DNA from: Bacteroidales bacterium
GTDB taxonomy: Bacteria > Bacteroidota > Bacteroidia > Bacteroidales > UBA4417
Direction of reading: 5' to 3'
DNA: 64,000 bases
Assembly (NCBI GenBank): GCA_038249705.1
Contig: JBBSDC010000001.1
Location: forward strand, 103 to 64,102
The notes under the pieces were generated by a model. That model searched no databases. It saw only the letters and a program-made list of their open reading frames with translations, and was not told the origin of the DNA. Position 1 is the stretch's first letter, and every line of letters starts with the position of its first letter. Both the position numbers and the translations under genes were made by a program. Shown here piece after piece: positions 58,361 through 59,297 of the stretch.

Positions 58361-58400
58361 AAAAGCAATGGGGAACAATCCTGTCGGATAGTTCCCCATT
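58361..58400 (-). terminator. long hairpin plus U-tract closing the candidate large RNA
   Basis: On the minus strand, AATGGGGAAC (58400-58391) pairs with GTTCCCCATT (58376-58367). An inner ATCC-GACA-GGAT extension follows, and the hairpin is followed by GCTTTTATT. Confidence 0.6.
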
Positions 58401-59297
58401 TCACTTTCAGCAGCCGTAGCTGTTAATTGTGGCCGGCGTTTGCTTCGCAGAACTTACAGATTGGCACACCAAATAGCAATGCCCTGTTGTTGTTCAAAGC
58501 TGGTGACAAGCACCTGACTTTGTTTTTTCCGGCACTGGCAACAAACTTTAGTTTTCTTCACAAGGAAGAACTTTAAGCTTGAACCTGGGTTTTGATCATT
58601 GTCCATCTCTGGATTTCAGTTCTAAACCACGCTTTCGCGTTGTCGGTTCCTGCATTCGTAGCGTTTGTTGTTACTTAATCCGTAGATTGCGTAACACCTG
58701 TAGGTATAAGGAAATATTACATCCCTTGAAACCCCGGCTCGACTGATTTGCACGCTGCCTTACGACTTTGTGTTTCATCTGACTTTGGTTGCATCAACAG
58801 AACTGTTTCCAGCTCTGGATTTTACAACTTTGCGCCGCGCTTCGGCGATCATATGAATTTACATCCAAATGCCTTGCAGCTTCTGTTTGTTTCATTCATG
58901 CCTGATGATTTTCATCGGGAACTTATTGCAACGAGGGTCACAACTTTTTTACTTTTCGAACTTTGCAGCCCGTTTTTCATCAGTTTGAGTTTTTCCGATA
59001 TGATTCGTTACCGATACACATTTTCAAACTTTGTACCCTAAACACTTTACAGTGCGCCTGTTCGTCAATTCCTTGCAGTTTTTCGGTTCAGGTTGTTACA
59101 TGCCCTTTGATTCTTTCTGACAATCCAACTTTCGAATCAGTATCCCCAATCTACTCTTTCGGGTTGATTGCTTTTACCTCTCCGGGATCAGTACCTCCCT
59201 CCTTCTCAGAAGTTCGATAGCATCTCCGGGGTTGGTTGTTATGATCTCGTCCGGTGAATTAAAATTACAACTTTCGGCACCCCTAAGTCAAGTGTTT
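58361..59297 (-). ncRNA. candidate large (~0.9 kb) structured non-coding RNA of unrecognised class
   Basis: No credible ORF on either strand, and the region is visibly richer in G+C than its AT-rich flanks. The minus strand is purine-rich and carries cUACGg hairpins (58696-58669, 58422-58411), a GAAA hairpin (58640-58629) and a GAGA hairpin (58613-58602). A 12-position long-range helix (58740-58729 with 58592-58581) is also present. G-U pairs occur only in the minus-strand reading, and a terminator-like 3' hairpin closes the region. The ends are approximate and the 5' end is unknown. Confidence 0.55.

Follow-up and report, generated by a model that had tools for sequence, protein, structure and literature searches.

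The stretch of DNA analyzed here, 64,000 nucleotides (nt) of contig JBBSDC010000001.1 from a Bacteroidales bacterium (hereafter the window), carries on its minus strand relA/spoT, a 157-amino-acid (aa) open reading frame (ORF) that we call p157, and the potassium-uptake operon trkAH, and between p157 and trkA it is free of genes from 58168 to 59398. This gap of 1231 nt, bounded by the trkA start (58167) and the p157 stop (59399), is the largest internal gap without genes in the window. Within it, positions 58361..59257 of the minus strand almost certainly constitute a real structured noncoding RNA gene, with a proposed transcript of ~897 nt that is delimited by the limits of conservation among homologs and by a covariation-supported fold across the whole interval. 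The 5' end of the RNA is uncertain by ~3 nt, and the 3' end falls inside a U-tract. A first-pass annotation had placed a candidate structured RNA at 58361-59297; its 3' limit stands, and at the other end the extent is refined to 59257, the last 40 nt corresponding to the putative promoter.

That annotation had also described the gap as empty over 1.2 kb and the gaps elsewhere as shorter than about 400 bp. The first description is borne out by the coordinates above, and the second is about right: the next-largest apparent gaps on a crude gene map shrink on inspection, 35940-36472 being filled by an ORF with a GTG start. The second-largest gene-poor gap, 19142-19870 (729 nt), contains only a 74-aa ORF (19518-19742, plus strand). 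The core is richer in G+C than its surroundings, as had been noted by eye, with 43.7% in the RNA against 26% in both spacers and 38.3% in the whole window, and its minus strand is purine-rich (A 34.9%, G 24.2%; purine 59%). The RNA is present as a single copy in the window.

Homologs were collected through the neighboring TrkA protein and through DNA patterns. An identical TrkA is encoded on four metagenome contigs, whose intergenic segments show 4-8 differences from the window. Scanning GTDB with TrkA, one genome for each species, gave 67 loci, of which the close ones are labeled Lentimicrobiaceae or Bacteroidales metagenome-assembled genomes (MAGs); 13 of those species carry the full-length segment at 73-84% identity, with TrkA identity of 94-97%. 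A DNA-pattern scan of metagenome contigs contributed ~36 further genuine copies; ~26 of its 62 matches were chance matches inside coding sequence. Four pattern matches on viral contigs were likewise unrelated chance matches in coding sequence, and a viral origin was rejected; blastn of phage and plasmid collections gave no match to the RNA. Thirty sequences of 879-897 nt were left in the working alignment, A3, after those >97% identical had been dropped (pairwise identity: mean 78%, minimum 65%), and across these non-redundant homologs conservation opens at UCACCGGACGAG (59257) and closes at GCUUUU. The known distribution of the RNA is confined to one family, the Lentimicrobiaceae (Bacteroidales), uncultured anaerobes of freshwater, sediment and sludge.

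The case for structure rests on comparison, because the single-sequence fold only modestly beats shuffled sequences, and does so on both strands (z -3.6 and -3.1). RNAalifold applied to 14 species yielded 228 pairs, of which 67 show double compensatory changes, and the A3 consensus fold comprises 245 pairs in 48 helices. Standard pairs fill 94.8% of the cells of this fold, compared with 31.7-40.7% when the partners are slid by 1-3 columns; double-sided changes occur in 109 of the 245 pairs, compared with 39-54 in the slid controls; and none of 500 column shuffles reached any of five measures. These counts carry no phylogeny correction, the slid control keeping the relatedness of the sequences, and that control favors a structure derived from the same alignment; both points count against the strength of the comparison, and the margin is nevertheless very large. 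The check by covariation on homologs that the first-pass annotation had proposed therefore comes out in favor of an RNA.

The strand also follows from the comparison. In the A3 fold, G-U combinations outnumber A-C combinations by 585 to 128, an excess that fits transcription of the minus strand, and the promoter-like boxes and the terminator described below both read on that strand, which had been the strand proposed at the outset. The stable loop types that had been picked out by eye recur in the consensus fold: among the 18 hairpins of the window copy, 11 carry GNRA loops and two carry UNCG loops (cUACGg, at 58680-58685 and 58414-58419 of the minus strand), making 13 of 18, and the GNRA loops drift between GCAA, GAAA and GUAA among relatives. 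A covariation scan of unpaired columns gave no convincing pseudoknot, kissing interaction or long-range pair, and only trivial matches between A-runs and U-tracts. The motif AAAGU is found in 15 copies on the sense strand of 58168-59398 (~2.7 expected from the window average) and in one copy on the other strand. It was considered as a protein-sponge repeat or family feature and dropped, since most copies are altered in relatives (GCAAAGU to CACGGCA, for example) and many are simply a GNRA loop with its closing pair; the excess in the window copy appears to be either peculiar to this lineage or a side effect of the GNRA loops.

The same alignment bears on the proposal that a protein-coding gene, decayed or mis-called, occupies the interval on one strand or the other. 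Antisense stop-free stretches reach 250 codons in one homolog (L029) and exceed 180 in seven others, so that 8 of 30 homologs fall at 180-250 codons (also, for example, L112 and L093), beyond the shuffled expectation (mean 90, 95th percentile 123 codons), and in L002 and L003 gene callers (JGI) annotated a sense ORF of 50 aa within the RNA. However, the antisense open frames differ in frame and column between species, their translations are low-complexity strings rich in F, S, L, C and R, and both the window copy and L007 are without long open frames. Long frames arise on the plus strand because that strand is pyrimidine-rich and therefore poor in stop codons by composition; the sense ORFs of the kind called in L002 and L003 and these antisense frames are annotation traps. 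Within A3, 502 of 536 gap runs (94%) are 1 nt long, and variable columns are spread over the three codon phases as 207/229/216, without 3-nt periodicity. Compensatory changes in as many as 109 pairs are, moreover, unexpected for a decaying gene.

The first-pass annotation had seen no believable gene here, and this judgment is upheld by the lack of a conserved frame, the single-nucleotide indels and the lack of codon-phase bias. The segment contains only ORFs of 40-97 aa, and the two that had been listed on the plus strand (58748-59041 and 58963-59220) exist as described, as a by-product of pyrimidine richness. None of the loci read in relatives has a protein gene at the position of the RNA, and the length is constant at 879-897 nt, which is the opposite of what the annotation had said would point to a pseudogene. 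A hidden ORF or pseudogene was accordingly rejected on the 1-nt indels, the missing codon periodicity and the unconserved frames, and we consider it improbable in the extreme.

We infer that the RNA is its own transcription unit, with a regulated promoter, an operator-like palindrome and its own intrinsic terminator. A putative upstream promoter box, TTGAC (59287..59291, minus strand; -33/-35-like), is near-invariant in both clades of homologs, the main clade and the diverged clade described below; its promoter role is read from the sequence. A putative proximal box, TAATTTTA (59260..59267, minus strand), is also kept in both clades and lies 19 nt past TTGAC and 2-3 nt ahead of the first conserved RNA base; we take it to be close to the Bacteroidetes -7 consensus TAnnTTTG. 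The 19-nt spacer of the arrangement TTGAC-N19-TAATTTTA varies freely between species, whereas the boxes are conserved. Some 75-95 nt upstream of the RNA start lies a 22-nt near-perfect palindrome, GTTATTAACAATTGTTCATAAC (59331..59352), which is present in every homolog examined from both clades, is perfect in several of them and is followed by ATTGT-like repeats. This palindrome resembles a putative operator for a dimeric regulator, placed ahead of the RNA promoter. The window has a single copy of it, and its use as a regulon marker was dropped for that reason.

The consensus fold resolves into three domains closed by a long-range helix, P1, whose 5' strand (nt ~4-10; 59248..59254, minus strand) pairs with its 3' strand at 58433..58438 of the same strand. 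P1 is invariant in the main clade. Inside it, a second long-range helix, P2 (59239-59246 with 58847-58854, minus strand), closes Domain I (~400 nt; 58847..59246), which holds helices 2-22, most of them with compensatory changes; P1 and P2 together substantiate the claim of at least one long-range helix. Domain II (~190 nt; 58657..58846, minus strand) contains helices 24-34 and starts with a highly conserved GCCGAAGCGCGGCAC junction, and Domain III (~205 nt; 58447..58653, minus strand) contains helices 35-46. The penultimate hairpin (helix 47; 58402..58431, minus strand) has a cUACGg loop, with a compensatory change in five of its nine pairs, and 21 of 30 sequences have CUACGG as the loop.

At its 3' end the RNA closes with an intrinsic-terminator-like hairpin of 10+4 bp with a cGACAg loop (helix 48; 58367-58400, minus strand; 98.8% paired, three compensatory pairs), followed by a U-tract (58361-58366, minus strand). 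The first-pass annotation had already recorded this hairpin. It is followed by GCUUUUAUU (GCUUUU(A)UU in the RNA), and together they present the G+C-rich hairpin and U-tract of an intrinsic terminator. A simple terminator scan did not list the hairpin at 58367-58400, and the alignment fold was relied on instead. Beyond its pairing, the sequence of the hairpin (GGGGAACUAUCCGACAGGAUUGUUCCCC) is conserved across both clades. This conservation exceeds what termination needs, and the hairpin may therefore double as a protein-binding or processing site.

A diverged clade of loci, with TrkA 79-84% identical, extends the family (L033 and L035-39, plus metagenome copies such as L086, L087, L094 and L101). 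These loci keep the upstream palindrome, the promoter, the 5' subdomain and the terminator. P1 is kept with changed sequence, CCGGAUGC/GCAUUCGG in L033 against CCGG-A-CG/CGCCGG in the window. Purine content is 58-60%, the folds contain 5-8 GNRA loops, and the penultimate CUACGG/UUACGG hairpin stands at the matching position in five of six diverged-clade folds, the sixth (L038) having UCAAGG. R1, a covariance model built on the first 138 nt (the start of Domain I), finds the diverged clade at the expected position with 21-46 bits; full-length matches score 24-46 bits (E 3e-10 to 3e-4), and in more distant loci R1 found nothing significant. The interior of the RNA is another matter: the diverged-clade versions measure 662-758 nt, ~200 nt less than those of the main clade, only a 5' part of ~100 nt and a 3' part of ~80 nt align between clades by nhmmer, and long conserved single-stranded stretches are few. 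These three features speak against a fixed core for catalysis or ligand binding.

No described family accounts for the RNA. Rfam 15 at gathering score, run on the whole window, gave no match in the RNA segment; the same search found the Bacteroidales small signal recognition particle (SRP) RNA at 2866-2972 (minus strand, 102 bits) and a tRNA at 1089-1161 (minus strand), and it therefore works on this genome. With permissive filters and E<=10, the region 58100-59450 (1.35 kb) gave seven weak matches, all to unrelated small-RNA families. The best of them, RAGATH-22, scored 22.4 bits where the gathering score is 120.3, covers just the terminator hairpin and was rejected. None of the models for GOLLD, ROOL, OLE, HEARO, raiA, introns, RNase P, tmRNA, 6S or SRP RNA matched the segment at E<=10, and eight homologous loci, including the diverged clade, gave nothing at gathering score. 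The RNA is also undescribed in the literature that was searched, a possibly relevant 2026 preprint (10.64898/2026.09.22.753630) being judged by term counts, which showed no Lentimicrobiaceae, TrkA or 'ornate'. The first-pass annotation had seen no signature of RNase P RNA, tmRNA, rRNA or group II introns and had named the large-RNA models as the check to run; the Rfam results bear out its judgment. The RNA very probably stands outside any described family.

Large RNAs can outrun the reach of covariance models, and the two clades of this very family are barely alignable in the interior, so the RNA could in principle be a highly diverged member of a described large family (GOLLD, ROOL, OLE, a group II intron or an RNase P-like RNA) that the models missed. 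Against this stand the unrelated nature of the seven weak matches and the silence of the eight homologs, and the context hallmarks of such families are lacking as well: near the RNA there is no reverse transcriptase, IscB, oapA-like gene or prophage, and no tRNA adjoins it. We judge such a missed relationship very improbable.

Comparison with individual classes brings out likenesses of design together with differences of context. GOLLD is often located in prophages or beside tRNA genes; here its model does not match, the only tRNA of the window is 57 kb away, and the phage collection holds no match. The ROOL model likewise found no match in the window, in the segment at E<=10 or in the eight loci. 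GOLLD and ROOL resemble the new RNA in size class (~0.6-0.8 kb), in an ornate, tetraloop-rich, multi-domain fold and in having no assigned function, whereas the new RNA has a fixed chromosomal position after relA-p157, is found in one Bacteroidales family and lacks a tRNA or phage context. Group I and II introns and RNase P RNA have multi-domain folds with long-range helices, and their GNRA loops dock into helix receptors. The new RNA shares long-range closing helices and many GNRA loops with them; unlike them, it matches none of their models, has no intron-encoded protein or flanking exons, occupies one fixed locus as a single copy and is not conserved in its interior between clades. For HEARO/IscB omega-RNA and other guide RNAs of transposons there was no model match, and the flanks of the loci read contain neither nuclease nor transposase genes of the IscB, TnpB or IS110 type or any other.

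Two further classes are tied, as the new RNA is, to particular neighboring genes. raiA RNA is ~200 nt long and widespread in Bacillota and Actinomycetota, whereas the new RNA is 4-5 times larger, lineage-restricted and without a match to the raiA model. OLE is a large (>600 nt), intricately folded noncoding RNA with its own gene, linked in the genome to the genes of its binding proteins, much as the new RNA is tied to a gene for a small, predicted beta-barrel protein and to relA. The two differ in that the OLE model does not match and the new RNA is ~300 nt longer, has a narrower distribution and shows faster sequence turnover. OLE hosts are Gram-positive extremophiles and anaerobes, compared with Bacteroidales here, and OLE neighbors encode membrane or ParB-like Oap proteins (oapA), compared with relA and the predicted tandem-OB protein p157. 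OLE is reported to form a ribonucleoprotein implicated in stress responses (PMC9723947, PMC12265935), and raiA RNA is described as a structured, trans-acting, independently terminated RNA named for an adjacent stress/ribosome-hibernation gene (PMC10861870, PMC11706538). The new RNA has the size (>~500 nt), the covariation-backed structure and the noncoding character of the large ornate bacterial noncoding RNAs, a class by description and not by homology; for a discrete stable transcript, the signals are those of the sequence, the promoter-like boxes and the putative terminator.

The gene neighborhood is constant on one side of the RNA and variable on the other. Upstream, wherever the contig reaches, the order is relA/spoT, p157, RNA, with two exceptions, L035 and L036. 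In the window, relA/spoT (59958..62156, minus strand; HD, RelA_SpoT, TGS and ACT domains by Pfam) is the constant upstream neighbor by synteny, and p157 (59399..59872, minus strand) is directly upstream of the RNA, as it is in all but those two of the loci read. p157 is encoded ~140 nt upstream of the RNA, and in most main-clade loci its start lies 608 nt before a 20-nt search motif. The downstream gene varies: trkAH in the window and most loci, nth/HhH-GPD in L138, L139 and L142, an ABC ATPase in L140, DUF4199 with a GT2 glycosyltransferase in L147, and a convergent GH92 gene in L010. In this last locus (1173-3476) the opposite-strand GH92 glycoside hydrolase gene is inserted between the RNA and trkA, with its stop codon ~15 nt from the RNA terminator, and the hairpin may thus terminate transcription both ways there. 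A further observation from these flanks concerns floA, which in L138 (1610-2607; a complete-chromosome MAG) is split into ORFs of 263 and 69 aa and is intact at 332 aa in L139, L140 and the window.

A regulatory leader of trkAH, that is, a riboswitch or attenuator of the potassium-uptake operon, would be expected on the same strand, upstream of the operon, and closing, like an expression platform, with a terminator hairpin, and the RNA has all of these features; potassium transporter genes are moreover classic targets of cyclic di-AMP riboswitches. The variable downstream gene contradicts this explanation, as do the many close relatives in which trkAH stands behind other genes and no RNA is present. 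In addition, a 190-nt AT-rich spacer separates the RNA from trkA and contains, outside the RNA and 27 nt ahead of the trkA ATG, the box TAAATTTG (58195..58202, minus strand), which marks trkAH as a separate transcription unit. No riboswitch model matched, including the cyclic di-AMP ydaO class, and with five different downstream genes the cis position is inconstant. The trkA leader was rejected on synteny and is, in our view, highly improbable. The first-pass annotation had already argued from this box that the segment is not simply the trkA leader, an argument that was right and, given the variable downstream gene, understated. Its description of the flanks, an S1-like gene on one side of the RNA and trkAH on the other, is correct for the window; the trkAH side proves incidental, the RNA being anchored by synteny to relA-p157. 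Because the following gene differs between species, the RNA acts in all probability in trans, independently of trkAH.

The anchoring on the relA-p157 side raises a different possibility: the RNA could belong to the relA-p157 transcript, acting in cis or processed from it, as a huge structured 3' untranslated region that stabilizes or terminates the messenger RNA. The RNA is on the relA-p157 strand and always directly downstream of these genes, its spacing from p157 is constant, and a simple terminator scan listed no site between the p157 stop and the RNA, so that read-through from relA-p157 is possible. Arguing the other way, the promoter-like boxes with their freely varying spacer and the palindrome are conserved right before the RNA in both clades, and P1 is built from the earliest conserved bases of the RNA and its 3' region, an arrangement seen in discrete stable RNAs. 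A fold of ~900 nt and 48 helices also far exceeds the needs of stabilization or termination, and the RNA persists where p157 is absent. We regard this explanation as improbable.

p157 was characterized by profile, sequence and structure searches. It matches no Pfam family at E<=1e-3 and no NCBIfam family at E<=1, S1 models included; a sequence search of the PDB gave nothing significant, the only match being to the S1 region of exosome Rrp4 at E~0.8, and the 131 homologs retrieved through a word index are without exception unnamed proteins from this clade. AlphaFold2, given an alignment of 32 sequences, produced a model (predicted local distance difference test score, pLDDT, 86) that is all-beta with two barrels, and the best PDB matches by Foldseek are tandem-OB/S1-type proteins: Teb1-AB, HIN-200, ModE Di-MOP, exosome Rrp4/Csl4 and RNase II/R. 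The earlier label of an S1-like gene holds at most at the level of the predicted fold, as tandem OB-like barrels, and fails at the level of Pfam and NCBIfam S1 models. A profile search of 1.84 billion representatives identified p157 as the half-size form of a Pfam-less, internally duplicated family of ~300 aa with ~400 clusters, which shares with p157 the motif C-x6-NC(T/S)G(R/K)-x2-LEP-x-HP-x-Y (p157 and proteins P0121-P0325). Invariant residues of p157 include Cys66, Cys73, Cys138 and His46, which possibly make up a metal site.

Four full-size (~300-aa) relatives were inspected as a way of extending the RNA family, and this route was abandoned: they stand in other contexts, with no adjacent RNA-sized gap and no nhmmer match. 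Among the loci inspected, the RNA accordingly travels with the half-size (~155-aa) form only, which is present beside it everywhere except in L035 and L036. In L146 a full-size member of the family lies 8 nt upstream of relA. A 155-aa ORF after relA in the same locus was considered as p157 and rejected, as it is not a p157 homolog.

The explanation that we favor overall, with a probability of roughly 0.6, is that the RNA represents a new large trans-acting structural RNA class, which may supply the RNA part of a ribonucleoprotein with p157. Its many GNRA loops and its closed design of three domains suggest a compact tertiary or, possibly, quaternary structure. Because the ends and the terminator hairpin are conserved in sequence and the interior mainly in pairing, with remodeling between clades, a scaffold or particle fits better than a ribozyme or a ligand sensor. 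In the mechanism that we put forward tentatively, with the odds against it as a whole, the transcript would be a stable structural RNA, folded into a compact particle by the docking of its many GNRA loops into helix receptors; this particle would be the RNA subunit of a ribonucleoprotein with the tandem-OB p157, and the co-inherited RNA-p157 pair would work in a RelA/SpoT-linked stress module. The gene neighborhood weakly suggests p157 as the candidate RNA partner, an assignment that should be regarded as doubtful.

Several points weigh against this interpretation. In L035 (2738-3070) and in the equivalent region of L036, the RNA follows relA directly with no intervening p157 ORF, which tells against the partnership with p157, and, inside a single bacterial family, the adjacency of p157 and RNA could simply reflect a gene order passed down from a common ancestor. 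The Foldseek matches combine high probability (0.98-1.0; E 3e-5 to 5e-3) with low TM-scores (0.28-0.38). OB folds, moreover, bind not only RNA but also DNA, oligosaccharides and molybdate, and ModE is among the matches. The existence of the transcript, the position of its ends and its stability are predictions from the sequence, and the missing terminator between p157 and the RNA counts here as well.

The most serious of the other explanations retains the same RNA gene and removes p157 from it: an RNA-only homo-oligomer of the GOLLD/ROOL/OLE kind, or a ribozyme, with the adjacency of p157 and relA being synteny. Its size, the 11 GNRA loops among 18 hairpins and the closed multi-domain fold are typical of RNAs rich in tertiary and quaternary contacts, and L035 and L036 have the RNA without an adjacent p157. 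There is also precedent, in that one report (PMC12286853) presents GOLLD, ROOL and OLE as homo-oligomers by cryo-electron microscopy. On the other hand, the covariation scan of unpaired columns revealed no self-complementary conserved loop or pseudoknot, the strong divergence of the interior between clades is unusual for a ribozyme core, and the half-size p157 co-occurs with the RNA in every other locus read. We consider an RNA-only assembly possible, if rather improbable, and retain the trans-acting structural RNA, possibly with p157, as the preferred interpretation.

On the comparative evidence, the RNA is a new, well-supported, lineage-restricted class among the very large ornate bacterial noncoding RNAs, and it is the first such candidate that we could find for the Bacteroidales and the Lentimicrobiaceae. 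RNAs of this size and complexity are rare: to our knowledge, besides rRNA, RNase P RNA, tmRNA and introns, they comprise only the OLE, GOLLD, ROOL, HEARO and raiA classes. Such classes have opened new biology, including RNA nanocages, RNA-guided nucleases and membrane-bound ribonucleoproteins. The distribution of the new RNA is narrow and its interior evolves fast, which limits generality and makes genetics hard. Its assets are clean comparative support, defined ends, a putative operator, a candidate partner from a Pfam-less family and a constant link to relA.

For experimenters, an RNA of ~895 nt and a protein of 157 aa form a concrete construct, with a testable link to the stringent response. 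At its furthest reach, and in our estimation unlikely, the RNA would be the core of a new bacterial particle, either a p157 machine acting on the RelA/SpoT pathway or an RNA-only nano-assembly or ribozyme. In the first form, the machine may sense or modulate the stringent response of these bacteria, for instance through mimicry of a RelA ligand, be it ribosomal or tRNA; in either form, transcription of the RNA would be switched by a regulator binding the conserved 22-nt palindrome.

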